DNA of 23,871 bases, from UHGV virus genome UHGV-0138833; one strand, 5' to 3'. Under the pieces are notes generated by a model. The model did no database searches, was not told the origin of the DNA, and was given only the letters and a program-made list of their open reading frames with translations. The first letter of the stretch is position 1. Each line of letters begins with the position of its first letter. Positions 7,166-20,231 of the stretch are shown here, piece after piece. The translations under genes and the position numbers were made by a program. The DNA is from a virus.

Positions 7166-7822
7166 TCAGAAAATATCCCACCTGGCATCAACCACAACAC
7201 CTACTATTTCGCAATCATTGTCCATTTCTATGATTGGATATTGTGGATTAAGGGGCTTTAGAAACGCCTTTCCCATGTCAGAAATATATTTTTTGAATGT
7301 TGCTTCATTGGTCGATTTTTTTCTGGCGATGACGTAACACCCTGAAAAAACTTCTTTATCTGGGTTGACAAGGATCGACATTCCTTCAGGAAATGTTATT
7401 CCTACGGGCGAAGTCATTGAGTCTCCGTGCACTTCCAGCCAGAACCCCCTCTCACCAGCGTATTTTACAGAATGCCTCCAATTATCCTGATCATACATGT
7501 TGTAGTCATCACCAGAAGTTGCGAATAATCCTGCCTGAACCCAGTTAATTACAGGGTAAGAGTGTGCTGTGTCTCTCTGTGGGCAGCTCTTAACATTATT
7601 TTCCCAATGCTTATCTTTTTCATCTCCGTTCTGAAGCCACTGCGGTGAACACCGCAGTGCAGCTGCAACTTTAAAAAGGGTGTCACCGTTGAAACTTTTT
7701 GTAAGGCCTTGCTCGGCTTTACTGATTGCAACTCTGGTGATCCCAGCTTTTTTAGCCAACGCATCTTGTGTTAACCCAGCTTTTTGCCGTGCGTTGATGA
7801 GACGTTCACCTAAAGACTTCAT
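7166..7822 (-). CDS. CI-type prophage repressor: N-terminal HTH plus C-terminal S24 (LexA-like) autopeptidase
   Basis: Start taken at MKSLGERLINARQ (ATG 7822) with GAGAGGAGAAGAAAA RBS. HTH QKAGLTQDALAKKAGITRVAISKAEQG; Ala-Gly candidate cleavage site (VQAGLF); GDSM serine motif and downstream Lys (ARKK). Confidence 0.8.
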   Translation of the reverse strand: MKSLGERLINARQKAGLTQDALAKKAGITRVAISKAEQGLTKSFNGDTLFKVAAALRCSPQWLQNGDEKDKHWENNVKSCPQRDTAHSYPVINWVQAGLFATSGDDYNMYDQDNWRHSVKYAGERGFWLEVHGDSMTSPVGITFPEGMSILVNPDKEVFSGCYVIARKKSTNEATFKKYISDMGKAFLKPLNPQYPIIEMDNDCEIVGVVVDARWDIF

Positions 7823-7842
7823 TTTTCTTCTCCTCTCATGGC

Positions 7843-7920
7843 TGTTGATACTAAAGTAACAGAATTTCTTGATACTTTGGATTCCCGTGGTTAACATCGT
7901 TGGATAACAAAGTATCTGGT
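7843..7920. promoter_or_regulatory. Right operator cluster (OR-like): three TTGATAC-type cores
   Basis: GTTGATACTAAAG (7844-7856), CTTGATACTTTGG (7869-7881) and inverted CCAGATACTTTGT (minus strand, 7907-7919). Lies between the repressor start and the rightward genes. Confidence 0.5.
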
Positions 7921-7933
7921 GTGAGACTAAAGA

Positions 7934-8161
7934 ATGACCCTTTATGAAATATTAAAAATTCAATTTAAAACCAATGCCGCTATTGGTCGCAGGTTCCCAA
8001 AGAAAGGAAGGCCTCGTGGCAGTCAAGGTGTTGGAAAGTGGAAAACGCGAGGTGTTCCGGAGGATGTTGCCATTCTTTGTCATCTGGATCCGAGCATTCC
8101 ATATACACACCCAAGTCTAGCGAATACAGAAGATGACAAGCCCACAGGAGACCAACAATGA
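7934..8161 (+). CDS. Hypothetical small basic protein (75 aa) in the Cro position; no recognisable HTH
   Basis: First rightward ORF. Stop overlaps the next start (ATGA). Contains KKGRPRG, an AT-hook-like motif. Weak RBS, odd composition. Confidence 0.3.
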   Translation: MTLYEILKIQFKTNAAIGRRFPKKGRPRGSQGVGKWKTRGVPEDVAILCHLDPSIPYTHPSLANTEDDKPTGDQQ

Positions 8162-8865
8162 ACACCGCAATTTTTAACGGCAAAGCATCCATGACCAGCG
8201 TTGAGATCGCAGAGCTGGTGGGTAAACGTCATGACAATGTGAAACGCACTATTGAAACATTAGCCAAAGGTGGCGTTGTCCGGTCTCCTCAAATTGAGGT
8301 TTCCGAAAGAATCAATAACTTAGGTTTTAAAGTTCAATATGAGCATTACCTGTTTGAAGGAGAACAAGGTAAGCGCGACAGCATCATTGTCGTCGCACAG
8401 CTCTGTCCTGAATTCACTGCTCGCCTGGTAGATCGCTGGCGCGAACTGGAAGAACAGATCCGTAAGCCAATGAGCGAAATCGAAATGGTTGCCGCGATGG
8501 CTCTTGAAGCCGTTCGCCAACAGAAACGGATCACTCAGGTGGAAGAAAAAGTCAGCCACGTTGCTGAAACAGTCGAGCAAATTAAAAAGGGCACTATTCG
8601 TGAGGGCTATGCCGGATATCGCCAACTGAAAGCAAAAACCGGTTTGTCAGATGATAAATGCCGCAATCTGGTGAACGCCTATCAGATTCCTACAGACACC
8701 CATGAGTTCATGACGCCGGACGGATTGTTGTCACGTCGCGCAATTGTTGCTGTGGAACCGTTTATGGCTGCTTTTTATCGGGTTATGGAGGAAGCAGAAC
8801 CGCGAGGGACTCGCTGGTATCACCCGAAAATGGGGTTATTTCAGGTTATTGGTTGGCAGCGGTGA
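8158..8865 (+). CDS. Rha-family phage regulatory protein / antirepressor-like (235 aa)
   Basis: Strong AGGAGA RBS. N-terminal SVEIAELVGKRHDNVKRTIETL pattern typical of Rha-type regulators (recollection of family signature). Confidence 0.55.
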   Translation: MNTAIFNGKASMTSVEIAELVGKRHDNVKRTIETLAKGGVVRSPQIEVSERINNLGFKVQYEHYLFEGEQGKRDSIIVVAQLCPEFTARLVDRWRELEEQIRKPMSEIEMVAAMALEAVRQQKRITQVEEKVSHVAETVEQIKKGTIREGYAGYRQLKAKTGLSDDKCRNLVNAYQIPTDTHEFMTPDGLLSRRAIVAVEPFMAAFYRVMEEAEPRGTRWYHPKMGLFQVIGWQR

Positions 8866-8889
8866 AAAAAAGCCGGGAGTAACCCGGCT
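8864..8889 (-). terminator. Hairpin with a U-tract only in the minus orientation (antisense-blocking terminator candidate)
   Basis: AAAAAAA then AGCCGGG-AGTAA-CCCGGCT. On the minus strand this reads hairpin followed by TTTTTTT. No leftward gene ends here. Confidence 0.4.
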
Positions 8890-9087
8890 CACTCAACATC
8901 AATAACGGGGAGCTGTTTCGCATAAAACGGCTCCGAAACATCCAAGAACAGTTCTAAAGATATCAGCAGCTATATGATCATTTCAAGACCAAATATTGAT
9001 TCTGCAATTTCGGGACGTTACACTGTCTCTGCACCTTATAAAGCGGGTGCCGGGGGTCGCAGCCCGGAATTGTCAACGGCGATATAT

Positions 9088-9108
9088 GACGCGCCAGCGT
9101 CTTTTTTA
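9088..9108 (+). terminator. Short intrinsic terminator candidate in the leader of the second Rha gene (tR1-like position)
   Basis: Stem GACGC / GCGTC, loop GCCA, followed by TTTTTTA. Confidence 0.35.
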
Positions 9109-9273
9109 TCGTCCGCGCTCACGCACGCCAGAATTATGGTGGGCTGGGCAGGGGAGCCGAAAGGCTCGCCGGTCTCCGTTGACGCCGGTACTGCGAACCC
9201 TGTTCAGTCTGCCACCAGTGAGTTTCGCAGCTCCGGTGGTGGAAGTTTTCCACAGTCAACGGAGGCTGCCATC

Positions 9274-9825
9274 ATGGCTACGATCCCAACCCTCACTCAA
9301 CCTGAAATTGCCATCGTTGATGGTCAGGCTGTTACTTCATCCCTGGCTGTTGCCAACTTCTTCTCCAAGCGTCATGACGATGTACTGAAAAAGATCCGCA
9401 CGCTTGAATGCTCCGCATCATTCACTGCCCGCAATTTTTCGGTGAGTGATTACACCGATTGCACAGGCCGCAAACTACCTTGCTATCAAATCACCCGTGA
9501 TGGCTTCGCGTTCCTTGCTATGGGCTTTACTGGCAAACGTGCAGCCCGGTTCAAAGAGGCATACATCAACGCCTTTAACCTGATGGAGAAGAGTTTATCA
9601 GGTGCCGATGCGTCTGATATGTCAGCTGTCGCACGAAACGCCAGAGGCGTATACCTGCATTTGCGTGAAATCCATCAAATCTGGACAAGCCAGCTTTATC
9701 CAATGCTTAAGGCCGTTGAATCTCCGCTGGCTAGCAAACTGTACGACCGTGTTGGTGATGCTGTTTTTGGCGCTGCACTTGTTGGTTCCAGGCTGAATGG
9801 TTCTGACAAGGAGGTTCGCCCATGA
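9274..9825 (+). CDS. Rha-family phage regulatory protein (about 183 aa)
   Basis: Start taken at MATIPTL (ATG 9274) with GGAGG RBS at 9261-9265. Segment FSKRHDDVLKKIRTL...ARNFSVSDY...YQITRDGFAFLAMGFTGKRAARFKEAYINAFNLME matches the Rha pattern. Confidence 0.65.
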   Translation: MATIPTLTQPEIAIVDGQAVTSSLAVANFFSKRHDDVLKKIRTLECSASFTARNFSVSDYTDCTGRKLPCYQITRDGFAFLAMGFTGKRAARFKEAYINAFNLMEKSLSGADASDMSAVARNARGVYLHLREIHQIWTSQLYPMLKAVESPLASKLYDRVGDAVFGAALVGSRLNGSDKEVRP

Positions 9826-10016
9826 TTAGTTACGAAATCATCATCTCCACTACGGAATACAGAAACGATGTATCAGTTCGCACGGATGTATCTGTCTGGC
9901 ACCGTCGCTATAAATCCAGAAAAACAGCGGAACTGAAAGCGGCAGAGATGTGTGAAACCATCTCAATGAAAGGTAGCCCGGTTAAATACGTAACTACGGT
10001 GGAGGTGCGTCCATGA
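9822..10016 (+). CDS. Hypothetical small phage protein (64 aa)
   Basis: Start overlaps the upstream stop (ATGA), indicating translational coupling. Confidence 0.5.
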   Translation: MISYEIIISTTEYRNDVSVRTDVSVWHRRYKSRKTAELKAAEMCETISMKGSPVKYVTTVEVRP

Positions 10017-10237
10017 TCCGCCACATCGTTAATTCCCTGTATCACCGATACAACCGTTGCCCCCGTGTGGGGCAGTGGTTCGCCACCAGCAACGGTCACG
10101 TTCTGCGGGTTTGCCTAGTCAACGCTGAAAGCCAGAAAGTCGTGTGCGAACTACAGGGGCGTAGCTACACCATCAGTTACCCTCTGGCGGTATTTCTGTC
10201 TGGAAAAATGTTTAAGCGTCTGGGAGGTGTGGCGTGA
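10013..10237 (+). CDS. Hypothetical small phage protein (74 aa)
   Basis: Translationally coupled to neighbours by ATGA/GTGA overlaps. Confidence 0.5.
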   Translation: MIRHIVNSLYHRYNRCPRVGQWFATSNGHVLRVCLVNAESQKVVCELQGRSYTISYPLAVFLSGKMFKRLGGVA

Positions 10238-10533
10238 ACTGTTTTCAGTTTGTGTGCGGATGTGCTTTCGATAACCCGATTCAGCGCCTAATTATGTTGC
10301 GTGTTTTGATGTCGGGTTCTTCAGACGGTGAAGGCGAGAGAGTTATTGATCATCAGGTGCTTGCTGATTTCTGCTGTTGTTCTAAGCAAGCGATATTCAG
10401 GGAAACCCTGGCACTGGAAAGAGCTGGTTATCTTCATATCCGAAAAATTGCAACGCTTACTATTGATGCAAAAGCCAGACTACAACCTGCGCGTGGCTAC
10501 ACAATTCTCATGCCGCGGAAGGAGGTTGTATGA
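10234..10533 (+). CDS. Hypothetical small phage protein (99 aa), possible winged helix
   Basis: Coupled ORF; segment AIFRETLALERAGYLHI is HTH-like. Confidence 0.45.
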   Translation: MNCFQFVCGCAFDNPIQRLIMLRVLMSGSSDGEGERVIDHQVLADFCCCSKQAIFRETLALERAGYLHIRKIATLTIDAKARLQPARGYTILMPRKEVV

Positions 10534-11516
10534 GCCGTTACGCCCCCACACCGGAAGTTATGGCTATTGGTCAAATTAATATTTCCGGCAATGTTACACC
10601 TGCGAACTGGTGGAAATATATTCGACTACCCAGTGGGCGTCCGGATGCGACGGCTATCGCTCTGCTTTCAGAGATCGTTTACTGGTACCGCCCGACAGAG
10701 ATCAGGGATGAGCACACCGGAGCGTTGCTGGGATATCGCAAGCGTTTTCAGGGCGACAAACTGCAAAGAAGCTACCAGGCGTTTGCTGAGCAGTTTGGTT
10801 TCGGGAAAAGGGAAACCGCAGATGCGCTGAAGCGTCTGCGCGATGCAGGGTTTATTACTCTGGATTTACGCACGGTGGAAATGCTCGATGGGGTGAAATG
10901 CAGCAATATTTTGTTTGTCGGGATCAACCCACAGGCAATTGCGGCCATCACCACACCTTCTTCTGTTTCGCCAGAAAGTAACAGCAATAATGCAATCAGC
11001 GATACAGCTATTACGTTAAAACGGAACACCCCCCGACGTCATAACGGAACAGGGGATACGCCGAATGTTGATACAAATACAGAGATTACTACAGAGATTA
11101 CAACGGAGACTAAAAACACTATTGATGCATCCGCTGACGCGTCTGCGCGTTCTGCCCGACAGGAATATTCACCGGAATTTGAACAGGCCTGGCAGGAATA
11201 TCCCAAACGTGCTGGTGGCAATTCCAAGTCAGCGGCCTTCAAAGCCTGGAAAGCCCGTATCAGGGAGGGAATAAAACCGGAGACCATGCTTGATGGCGTG
11301 AAGCGGTATGCCGCCTGGGTACGTGCTACAGGAAATACCGGCACACAGTTCGTGAAGCAGGCTGCGACGTTCTTTGGACCCGATCGTCACTTCGAAGATT
11401 ACTGGCAACAGCCAGCCGCTCACGGAGGTGGGCGACAGCGACAGGTCGATGTCCTGGCTGGCCTGGGAGCCATGTCTGACAAATTCGGTAAATCCAGTAA
11501 CAAATTGACATTCTGA
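10530..11516 (+). CDS. Putative replication initiation protein (O-like position, 328 aa)
   Basis: AGGAGG RBS. Sits directly upstream of the DnaC-like and DnaB-like genes. Central low-complexity linker TEITTEITTETK encoded by 12-bp tandem repeats. Confidence 0.5.
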   Translation: MSRYAPTPEVMAIGQINISGNVTPANWWKYIRLPSGRPDATAIALLSEIVYWYRPTEIRDEHTGALLGYRKRFQGDKLQRSYQAFAEQFGFGKRETADALKRLRDAGFITLDLRTVEMLDGVKCSNILFVGINPQAIAAITTPSSVSPESNSNNAISDTAITLKRNTPRRHNGTGDTPNVDTNTEITTEITTETKNTIDASADASARSARQEYSPEFEQAWQEYPKRAGGNSKSAAFKAWKARIREGIKPETMLDGVKRYAAWVRATGNTGTQFVKQAATFFGPDRHFEDYWQQPAAHGGGRQRQVDVLAGLGAMSDKFGKSSNKLTF

Positions 11517-11526
11517 GGTGACAGCG

Positions 11527-12426
11527 ATGATGACGATTGACCAACGTGAGAAACAAACAAGACTACAGGCGCGAATGGATGAGTTACGGGCAGAAATGGA
11601 TGAGTTACGGGCAGAGATTGCATTTGCTCAGAAGGGCGAAAAGCCATGGCCTTATCGTTCCTGCCTGATGCGTGAAGGTCGCGGATATTGCGAAAAACAC
11701 GGTAAATATCGTACGCATATACTGGTGTGGATCGATCGTAATGGCGAGGACAGAGAAAAAATTTCATGCTGCCCTGACTGCTTGATCGCTGAGGCCAGTG
11801 ATTTGACCATGGAACTGTCGTCCCTCAAGGCGGAAGAACTGACTGATAACGCCGGAATTGCTCTGCGTTTTCGGGACTGCGAGTTTGATAATTATCTGGA
11901 GGTTAATCCTGACGCAGCCAGAAATCTTGCGGCCTGTCGCCGCTATGCGGAGAACTGGCCAGATATGCTGGAGAACGGTACCAGTCTTGTTATGACCGGC
12001 AGTTGCGGTACCGGGAAAAATCATCTGGCGGTATCAATGGCAAAACACATCATCCGTAACTATCTGGCCAGTGTGGAGATCACCGACGTGATGCGCCTTA
12101 CCCGGGCTGTGAAAAACTGCTGGCGGAATGACAGTGAAAAAACAGCGGATGACGTCATTGAGCATTATGCGTCACTGGATTTGCTGATTGTCGACGAAGT
12201 CGGCGTTCAGTTTGGCAGTGCGGCTGAAATGGCCATTTTGCAGGAAATTATCAATGCCCGGTATGAGGGTATTTTGCCAACTATCTTGATCAGCAATCTT
12301 TCACCGGAAGAATTGTGGGCGTTCATCAGTCCCCGGATTGCCGACAGGATCACCGATGGCGGGCGCAACTGGTTGTCGTTTAACTGGCCCAGCTACCGTT
12401 CTCGTATCGGAGGTGTTGCCGCATGA
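11527..12426 (+). CDS. DnaC-like helicase loader / IstB-type AAA+ ATPase (about 299 aa)
   Basis: Walker A GSCGTGKNHLA and Walker B LLIVDEVG. Start ATG 11527 after GAGGTGA. Contains a perfect 21-bp tandem duplication (RAEMDELRAEMDEL). Confidence 0.75.
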   Translation: MMTIDQREKQTRLQARMDELRAEMDELRAEIAFAQKGEKPWPYRSCLMREGRGYCEKHGKYRTHILVWIDRNGEDREKISCCPDCLIAEASDLTMELSSLKAEELTDNAGIALRFRDCEFDNYLEVNPDAARNLAACRRYAENWPDMLENGTSLVMTGSCGTGKNHLAVSMAKHIIRNYLASVEITDVMRLTRAVKNCWRNDSEKTADDVIEHYASLDLLIVDEVGVQFGSAAEMAILQEIINARYEGILPTILISNLSPEELWAFISPRIADRITDGGRNWLSFNWPSYRSRIGGVAA

Positions 12427-19089: not shown

Positions 19090-19165
19090 GGCCCTTTAGC
19101 TCAGTGGTGAGAGCGAGCGACTCATAATCGCCAGGTCGCTGGTTCAAATCCAGCAAGGGCCACCA
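19090..19165 (+). tRNA. tRNA with anticodon CAU (Ile2-like, ileX/ileZ type; Met not excluded)
   Basis: Manual cloverleaf: acceptor GGCCCTT/AAGGGCC, D-arm GCTC..GAGC, anticodon loop CTCATAA, T-arm GCTGG-TTCAAAT-CCAGC, encoded CCA. Resembles E. coli ileX as recalled. Confidence 0.8.
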
Positions 19166-19172
19166 TCACATA

Positions 19173-19249
19173 CCGCCATTAGCTCATCAGGAAAGAGCGC
19201 CAGCCTTCGAAGCTGGCTGCGCGGGGTTCAAGTCCCCGATGGCGGTCCA
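19173..19249 (+). tRNA. tRNA-Arg (anticodon UCG)
   Basis: Manual cloverleaf: acceptor CCGCCAT/ATGGCGG, anticodon stem CCAGC/GCTGG with loop CTTCGAA, T-arm CGGGG-TTCAAGT-CCCCG, encoded CCA. Confidence 0.75.
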
Positions 19250-19262
19250 TTATCTGCATCAT

Positions 19263-19339
19263 GCGTTGTTAGCTCAGCCGGACAGAGCAATTGCCTTCTA
19301 AGCAATCGGTCACTGGTTCGAATCCAGTACAGCGCGCCA
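19263..19339 (+). tRNA. tRNA-Arg (anticodon UCU)
   Basis: Manual cloverleaf: acceptor GCGTTGT/ACAGCGC (one G-U pair), anticodon stem ATTGC/GCAAT with loop CTTCTAA, T-arm ACTGG-TTCGAAT-CCAGT, G73, encoded CCA. Confidence 0.8.
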
Positions 19340-19803: not shown

Positions 19804-20195
19804 ATACATATCTGGATTATCACCGGTTACGGTAAAAAGTGATTGCTTACTGTTTTTGTGAATGGCATTGCAGCAGCCGGATAATGTCAGTGCTGGCTGA
19901 CGGTGTGCTGGTGGCGGGTGTGGTGGTTGCTGCTTTCCCGTTGCTGAAAAAGAAAACGCCAGACTGTTAGCCGGGTATCAGTTAGCGGGAGAAATTTTTA
20001 AATACTTCACAATTCAGGCGGTTGACTGTTGTCTGGTTTGCGGGGAGTTTGTTAAAAGAAACTGGCATGGTGAATCCCCCTGTGCGGAGGGGCAATCAGC
20101 GAGTAGGTATATGGGATAATCGCGGATTCAGGTGCTGGTACTGAATTCACCGGGAGGCACCCGGCACCATGCAATGGCACATAGCGCCACTCTCC

Positions 20196-20231
20196 AGCCC
20201 CTCTCCGGAGGGGCTGTTTATATTGATTTTG
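20196..20231 (+). terminator. Rho-independent terminator ending a GC-rich structured segment
   Basis: AGCCCCTC-TCCG-GAGGGGCT (8-bp stem) followed by GTTTATATTGATTTTG. A sibling hairpin CCCCT-GTGCGG-AGGGG lies at 20077-20092. Confidence 0.65.

Follow-up and report, generated by a model that had tools for sequence, protein, structure and literature searches.

The window analysed here, 23,871 nucleotides (nt) of the virus genome UHGV-0138833, carries two genes of Rha-like type with a structured leader ahead of the second. We assign positions 8996-9273 of this leader, with a probability of roughly 0.8 and on the basis of sequence comparison and structure modelling, to the RNA immunity modules of the P4/P1 type, placed in this case before the Rha-family gene of a lambdoid prophage. 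The module is a new copy of a described switch and not a new mechanism. The observations that carry the assignment are the matches to two RNA families, the structures of both RNAs, covariation among three sets of sites, burial of the Shine-Dalgarno (SD) sequence in the predicted fold, and a reading frame that is kept open with no selection on the peptide. The elements in question are as follows.

8996-9024, plus strand: putative internal promoter, with a -35 hexamer TTGATT at 8996-9001, a 17-nt spacer, a -10 hexamer TACACT at 9019-9024 and a start near G9031.

9031-9107, plus strand: isrK/seqA-like small RNA (sRNA), Rfam RF01394, 58.7 bits against a threshold of 50, matching positions 1-77 of 77.

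9132-9219, plus strand: C4/CI-type antisense RNA, Rfam RF01695, 78.8 bits against a threshold of 45, matching positions 1-87 of 87.

9224-9230, plus strand: target site a2, TTCGCAG, complementary to element a' of the C4-like RNA.

9255-9264, plus strand: target site b2, GTCAACGGAG, complementary to element b' and overlapping the SD sequence GGAGG at 9261-9265.

9274-9825, plus strand: nested gene for a protein of 183 residues, Phage_pRha (104 bits), with a normal coding signature and predicted to be under C4 control.

8974-9825, plus strand: long open reading frame (ORF) of 283 residues, in frame with the ATG at 9274 and spanning both RNA genes; the counterpart of P4 eta.

The whole window was scanned against Rfam and matches were judged by the curated gathering thresholds. 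The isrK/seqA-like RNA comprises hairpin 1 (9031-9050), hairpin 2 (9051-9066) and a terminator, GACGC-GCCA-GCGTC at 9088-9101 followed by T6 at 9102-9107 (-8.3 kcal/mol, z = -4.3). A site a1 (TCGCAG, 9057-9062) forms the loop of hairpin 2 and a site b1 (GTCAACGG, 9072-9079) lies between this hairpin and the terminator. The RNA ends 24 nt 5' of the C4-like RNA, in which an outer stem pairs 9137-9153 with 9198-9214 and is followed inwards by hairpin I, GAGCC-GAAA-GGCTC at 9154-9167 (-14.8 kcal/mol, z = -4.0), and hairpin II at 9168-9189. The pairing elements of C4 are the loop b' (CTCCGTTGAC, 9174-9183) and the junction a' (CTGCGAA, 9191-9197), which are also complementary to the shorter copies b1 and a1 in the isrK-like RNA. 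Folded alone, the C4 region reaches -47.8 kcal/mol (z = -4.3) and takes the Rfam consensus shape.

The first-pass annotation had listed three hairpins in this leader, namely a minus-strand terminator, a plus-strand terminator and a GNRA tetraloop hairpin, and a terminator scan together with folding finds each of them in its place. Judged by the Rfam matches, the plus-strand terminator is the end of the isrK/seqA-like sRNA and the GAAA hairpin is hairpin I, the first within the outer stem of C4. The minus-strand terminator is a different matter and is dealt with below.

To obtain related modules, 80 viral loci with genes for relatives of the Rha protein were collected and 42 distinct module copies were aligned, with slid alignments as controls. 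In these loci the stretch corresponding to approximately 8991-9300 behaves as a cassette, present in one to three copies per locus. The internal promoter is nearly invariant, as is the GGAGG, which sits 8 nt before the ATG at 9274; the GGAGG-ATG start proposed in the first-pass annotation is genuine. C4 also retains an invariant acceptor-like stem, ATTATGGTGGG ... CCACC. The C4-type RNAs of P1 and P4 mature from a longer transcript, with RNase P acting at the 5' end.

The three sets of sites, in the isrK-like RNA, in C4 and at the start of the controlled gene, change together across the alignment. When the internal helices are taken with b':b2 and a':a2, 96.2% of the alignment cells are paired, compared with 38-45% in the slid controls, and 26 pairs have changed on both sides. 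The b':b2 helix is paired in 99% of cells with seven of its ten pairs compensatory, and a1:a' with b1:b' gives 98.6% (34-49% when slid) with compensatory changes in 12 of 14 pairs. Overall the target pairings of a' and b' are 94-99% paired in the main helices, with up to four pair types at a position; two flanking a':a2 pairs reach 76% and show no covariation. Within the RNAs themselves, the C4 outer stem is 100% paired with four pairs changed on both sides, hairpin I is 99% paired with four of five pairs compensatory, hairpin II is invariant, and isrK hairpin 1 is 97.6% paired, each of its six pairs having changed on both sides in one or more copies.

The predicted fold agrees with this pattern. 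Both b':b2 and a':a2 form in the minimum-energy structure of 9031-9290 (z = -6.2), and the probability that the SD sequence is unpaired is 0.001 with C4 in the transcript as opposed to 0.195 without it. Predicted duplexes with C4 amount to -9.7 kcal/mol for a1, -12.5 for b1, -10.5 for a2 and -17.4 for b2. The triple covariation supports an antisense mode of control in which the C4 loops pair with the ribosome-binding site.

Candidate targets beyond the module were also considered. The sequence GTCAACGG occurs in the 23.9-kb window at b1, b' and b2 only, so that it offers C4 no target in trans elsewhere in the window, and TTCGCAG, with six matches against 3.7 expected, is not enriched there. 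An extra upstream target, GTTTCGCA at 8916-8923, is identical to the 8 nt that span a2 (9222-9229) and lies in the loop region of a second hairpin at 8909-8934. It was rejected because the same junction joins modules of other a-types unchanged, and is probably a chance match or a relic.

The specificities are diverse. Among the 42 copies there are eight a' and eleven b' variants in 19 combinations, and the modules of one prophage are orthogonal, b':b2 averaging 9.9 for cognate and 5.5 for non-cognate combinations. Some prophages have three isrK+C4 modules in tandem (locus L074, 946-2446; locus L056, 2255-4151), approximately 656 or 850 nt apart and each preceding its own short gene; the three in L074 differ in both a' and b'. 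A recombinant module in L056 (3912-4240) has a b' (CTATGTTGA) that fits the upstream b1 and not the downstream b2 (TCACCAAAG), and since only the a':a2 pairing is left the gene may escape full repression. In another locus (L008, near 2499) a one-base deletion falls in the ATG of the controlled gene (AT-G) and leaves a frame of 37 codons, the mark of a pseudogene or else of a sequencing error. The a' of a variant shared by loci L057, L066 and L002 (2207-2532), TTCTCAC, which targets GTGAGAA, is identical to the a-specificity of the satellite P4 (L083). The shared a-type suggests possible RNA cross-talk of a lambdoid prophage with a P4 satellite.

How might such a module operate in the window? 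Transcription would start near 9031 from the conserved internal promoter, and most transcripts would be expected to stop at the weak terminator at 9088-9107, giving a 77-nt isrK/seqA-like RNA with a1 and b1. Transcripts that read through would contain the C4/CI-like RNA joined to the Rha messenger RNA. In these the exposed b' and a' would pair in cis with b2 and a2, burying the GGAGG of the ATG at 9274, and C4 released by processing may act likewise in trans. The Rha gene would then go untranslated. Every junction in the chain of genes from 9274 to 12426 is a 4-nt overlap; the chain runs into replication genes, and the overlaps make it one translationally coupled operon. Expression from the internal promoter into the replication genes would thus be expected to be off, the downstream genes being shut down by polarity because they are translationally coupled to the Rha gene. 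The isrK-like RNA, with its decoy or second-target copies, may aid termination, its role in P4, or activate the gene by titrating C4, on the pattern of Gifsy-1.

The latter possibility can be extended to a full alternative, a positive switch modelled on the isrK-orf45-anrP locus of the Salmonella prophage Gifsy-1 (PMC4825925). Here the isrK-like RNA would act in trans to open the read-through transcript or C4, so that Rha is turned on under stress and promotes induction. Such a switch has been demonstrated by experiment at the homologous Gifsy-1 locus, and the duplexes predicted for a1 and b1 with C4 (given above) are consistent with it. However the duplexes of a2 and b2 with C4 are stronger, the arrangement on which the Gifsy-1 model relies, an orf45 with its own stop codon, is absent from the window, and the location differs in that the window module lies in the early operon and that of Gifsy-1 downstream of Q. 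We regard the positive switch as possible though doubtful for the window. It is compatible with the immunity reading, the two not being mutually exclusive.

Is the leader also a coding sequence? A second alternative holds that it is, and that 8974-9273 simply encodes an N-terminal 'Ash' domain of a 283-residue Rha protein, the RNA-family matches being incidental. Existing annotation speaks for this. The first 100 codons of the ORF 8974-9825 match Pfam PF10554 (Phage_ASH) with 52.5 bits, RefSeq annotates one long coding sequence (CDS), and the PHROG families include the N-terminal part. The frame is also well kept. In phase with the ATG at 9274 it is free of stops over approximately 294 nt in 40 of 41 module copies, the other two frames of the same copies having 21 and 13 distinct stop positions, and all length differences among copies are multiples of three. 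From an ATG at 9136, in the C4 5' stem, there is no stop up to the ATG at 9274, 138 nt on and in phase. The ATG at 8974, 22 nt upstream of the -35 hexamer, is likewise in phase at a distance of 300 nt. An in-frame ATG approximately 20 nt upstream of the -35 hexamer recurs in five or more unrelated contexts, and in several of these it has a strong SD sequence; at some other loci the open frame continues into a long upstream ORF.

Against a coding role, the leader has no codon periodicity. The variability at the three codon positions is 0.54, 0.58 and 0.58, compared with 0.20, 0.15 and 0.48 in the adjacent Rha gene, which follows the usual coding pattern, and variation in the leader clusters at compensatory RNA pairs. 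In the L057/L066/L002 variant a pair of indels (-1 and -2) shifts the frame over approximately 25 nt, changing some 14 residues whilst the nucleotides are kept. Equal variability and the frame-shifted variant together indicate that the peptide is not under selection. An independent sample of one genome per species gave 75 modules with frames judged over approximately 300 nt. Of these, 47 are open in the frame of the ATG at 9274, three in another frame, and 25, several Pseudomonas loci among them, have no open frame at all. We judge an ordinary coding role to be very improbable. Phage_ASH, which appears in NCBI annotation as 'ash family protein', appears from these comparisons to be a conceptual translation of the region seqA/isrK - CI/C4 - seqC and not a protein domain. 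The earlier description of 8974-9273 as probably non-coding is thus borne out for the peptide, which is free of selection with its codon positions varying equally, but it misses the frame, which is open in 40 of 41 copies and is preserved by the indels.

What then keeps the frame open? One tentative answer is ribosome transit, the frame and not the peptide being what matters. By analogy with P4 eta and kil, translation begun upstream, on transcripts of the early promoter, would pass through the RNA structures and make expression insensitive to C4. Early-promoter transcripts, translated through the isrK and C4 structures, would thereby escape RNA immunity and those from the internal promoter would stay silenced. 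Such an eta-like bypass in lambdoid prophages, combined with orthogonal a and b specificities, could make up a network of RNA immunity and cross-talk among co-resident prophages and P4-like satellites, a proposal that we put forward as speculative.

Several points weigh against the immunity reading or parts of it. The internal promoter falls under the threshold of a consensus scan, with eight of 12 matches, and an antirepressor function of the Rha-domain product is read from family labels only. The precedents disagree on the isrK/seqA element, which is a target for termination in P4 and activates in Gifsy-1, and Gifsy-1 has a separate orf45 with its own stop and no in-frame fusion. The ATG at 8974 has no recognisable SD sequence (cagcagctatATG), nor is it coupled to the preceding ORF 8158-8865, from which it is separated by a gap of 108 nt with an in-frame stop at 8923-8925. 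For want of both, the eta-like bypass may be weak or absent in the window. Coupling or a strong SD sequence is present at other loci, for example L041, where one ORF ends at 2204 and the next starts at 2201.

The least probable view, that of a plain non-coding leader, devoid of antisense RNA, whose independent hairpins terminate or insulate and so attenuate transcription into the second Rha gene and the replication operon, is right in that the hairpins and T-runs are real and that the isrK terminator probably stops most transcripts, as reported for Gifsy-1, but it places the GAAA hairpin on its own when this is embedded in an 88-nt structure matching C4 at 78.8 bits, and neither the covariation of the loops with three sets of target sites, needless for a simple insulator, nor the maintenance of an open frame fits with it. 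What stands of the role given to the leader in the first-pass annotation is a structured regulatory leader before the second Rha gene and the coupled replication genes; the free-standing insulators do not, the plus-strand terminator and GNRA hairpin being parts of two known RNA genes.

Features outside the module, on the side of the first Rha-like gene, are as follows.

7166-7897, minus strand: repressor with helix-turn-helix and S24 domains, by family match.

8158-8865, plus strand: weak Rha/Ant-like protein, by family match.

8863-8890, minus strand: leftward intrinsic terminator with a stem at 8870-8890 of eight pairs, six of them G-C, and a T-run reaching 8863.

8957-8986, minus strand: candidate promoter-like site, TTGAAA, 18 nt, TATCTT, with TG before the second hexamer.

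The leftward terminator belongs to the end of the upstream gene and is separate from the RNA module. Its seven consecutive T are found on the minus strand only (the plus strand reads seven A at 8865-8871), and with its G+C-rich stem-loop followed by a U-run it has the form of an intrinsic terminator. The terminator scan scores it on the minus strand, and the hairpin folds at -16.4 kcal/mol (z = -4.0). The T-run overlaps the TGA stop codon (8863-8865) of the ORF 8158-8865. The 3'-terminal 66-89 nt of the upstream gene are found again at other loci, some lacking the hairpin and some having it, and the sequence beyond them differs there. Two loci (L041 and L029) have a non-homologous hairpin at the same position, again scored as a minus-strand terminator, and a third type of junction has no hairpin. 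Most likely this terminator keeps leftward transcripts out of the upstream gene and the immunity region. Between 7700 and 10100 there are six terminator-like sites against 2.5 +/- 1.6 in shuffled sequences, and a search of the gap between the two Rha genes for transfer RNA (tRNA) and transfer-messenger RNA found none.

It is also conceivable, if unlikely, that the hairpin ends a leftward RNA of approximately 88 nt (from about 8950 to 8863), started at the promoter-like site 8986-8957 and resembling the OOP RNA of phage lambda. The OOP RNA lies just after cII, and the position here, after a gene that itself follows a cro-like gene, is similar. A minus-strand terminator with a U-run and a promoter-like site at a suitable distance are both present, and the minus strand of 8860-8955 folds with z = -2.7. 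The putative RNA overlaps the upstream gene at the stop codon only. However promoter-like sites are not above chance (two found, 2.6 expected), the alternative hairpin of L041 has no comparable promoter within 100 nt, and a permissive Rfam search of the minus strand gave only sub-threshold, terminator-driven matches to sroD (24.5 bits against 50), PrrF, SorX and SorY. The 204 Escherichia coli copies of 8862-8992 are all at least 99% identical.

An ORF at 7934-8161 (75 residues, phrog_4749), in the position of cro or cII, ends in an ATGA that overlaps the start of the first Rha/Ant-like gene. From this overlap, at 8158-8161, we take it that the first Rha/Ant-like gene lacks such an RNA module and is coupled to the early operon. 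Replication proteins are encoded downstream of the Rha gene at 9274-9825. In a distant part of the window an STnc100 sRNA (20036-20225, plus strand; Rfam, 132 bits vs 47) lies just 3' of three tRNA genes, Met-CAT, Arg-TCG and Arg-TCT (19090-19339, plus strand), an arrangement similar to the one that Stx-type lambdoid phages have close to their late region.

Of 5426 complete E. coli genomes, 1079 (approximately 20%) have matching relatives of the module, which are not annotated there as RNA. Since the leader resolves to a described regulatory device it opens no new question. It is of consequence for annotation, as in hundreds of E. coli genomes one CDS labelled 'Rha family' or 'ash family' conceals two RNA genes. 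The module adjoins an antirepressor-like gene and a replication operon in prophages related to Stx-converting phages, and that location makes it a plausible means of acting on prophage induction and on the cross-immunity of prophages. The naturally orthogonal pairs of loop and target are in addition a ready resource on the rules of antisense specificity.

Comparison with the immI region of P1 and P7 (c4-icd-ant1/ant2) was made through the Rfam family and published descriptions. There, as in the window, C4 is carried on the same transcript as its target. The biology of P1 C4 was reportedly set out by Citron and Schuster in 1990. By description P1 shares the a' and b' loops, the upstream sites a1 and b1, and the downstream sites a2 and b2 with b2 over the ribosome-binding site, and in P1 and P7 the specificity types are likewise set by loop sequence. 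The difference is that in P1 an icd-like ORF stands between c4 and ant, and its ribosome-binding site is the b2 target, whereas in the window no separate ORF intervenes and b2 covers the SD sequence of the Rha gene itself. In phage N15 a small processed RNA, the CA RNA, belongs to the same structural class and controls an antirepressor operon. C4 control of ant in P1 is documented (PMC8198154), the anti-immunity CA RNA of N15 has been named as structurally similar, and lambdoid prophages carrying IsrK-C4 systems have already been reported (both PMC3632133).

P4 and Gifsy-1 both place isrK and then C4 in the same order and adjacent, as in the window. With the isrK-orf45 (STnc1160)-anrP locus of Gifsy-1 the window shares the size of the isrK-C4 gap (25 nt in Gifsy-1, 24 nt here), the geometry of the isrK promoter, with 6 nt from the -10 hexamer to the first base of the Rfam match, and a regulatory gene of the Bro network downstream. 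Conservation of nucleotides with no conservation of peptide was also remarked upon by the Gifsy-1 authors. The Rha protein shows no homology with AnrP, an ORF6N protein. Unlike the window, Gifsy-1 has an orf45 whose own stop (ATGA) overlaps the anrP start and which is out of frame with anrP, there are stops upstream of the orf45 ATG so that no long ORF exists, and the locus lies downstream of Q.

In P4, CI and seqA lie inside eta, and Kil is the shortened product; transcripts begun at a constitutive promoter within eta soon terminate and are processed to CI, and full-length Eta, the translation of which prevents termination, is made only from an upstream promoter (summarised in PMC10111431). 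The Rfam models C4 and isrK detect relatives of CI and seqA (PMC10111431). The window is collinear with this P4 region. The distance from the ATG at the C4 5' end to the start of the controlled gene is 138 nt in P4 also, the context of SD sequence and start is homologous (GGAGGCTGCCATCATGGCTAC), that of P4 kil (GGAGGCTGCCATCATGGCTACA) being nearly identical to the window, and the element precedes replication genes. A long ORF (P4 8821-8168, minus strand) runs from upstream of the internal promoter through seqA, CI and seqC in frame with kil, and this eta ORF matches Phage_ASH over profile positions 1-107 of 107. There are differences. The controlled gene of P4 encodes the 65-residue Kil as opposed to a Rha-domain protein of 183 residues, P4 is a satellite and the window a lambdoid prophage with a CI/S24 protein repressor, and the long ORF of the window, unlike that of P4, is not coupled to an upstream gene and has no SD sequence. 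The spacer from isrK-like terminator to C4 is 107 nt in P4 compared with 24 nt. This P4 spacer (L083, approximately 8508-8614, minus strand) contains a partial repeat of the C4 5' end (CAGATTATGGTGTGGTGTGTGG) and is absent from both the window and Gifsy-1. With a long ORF in phase with the controlled gene and no separate orf45, the window follows the layout of P4 and not that of Gifsy-1.

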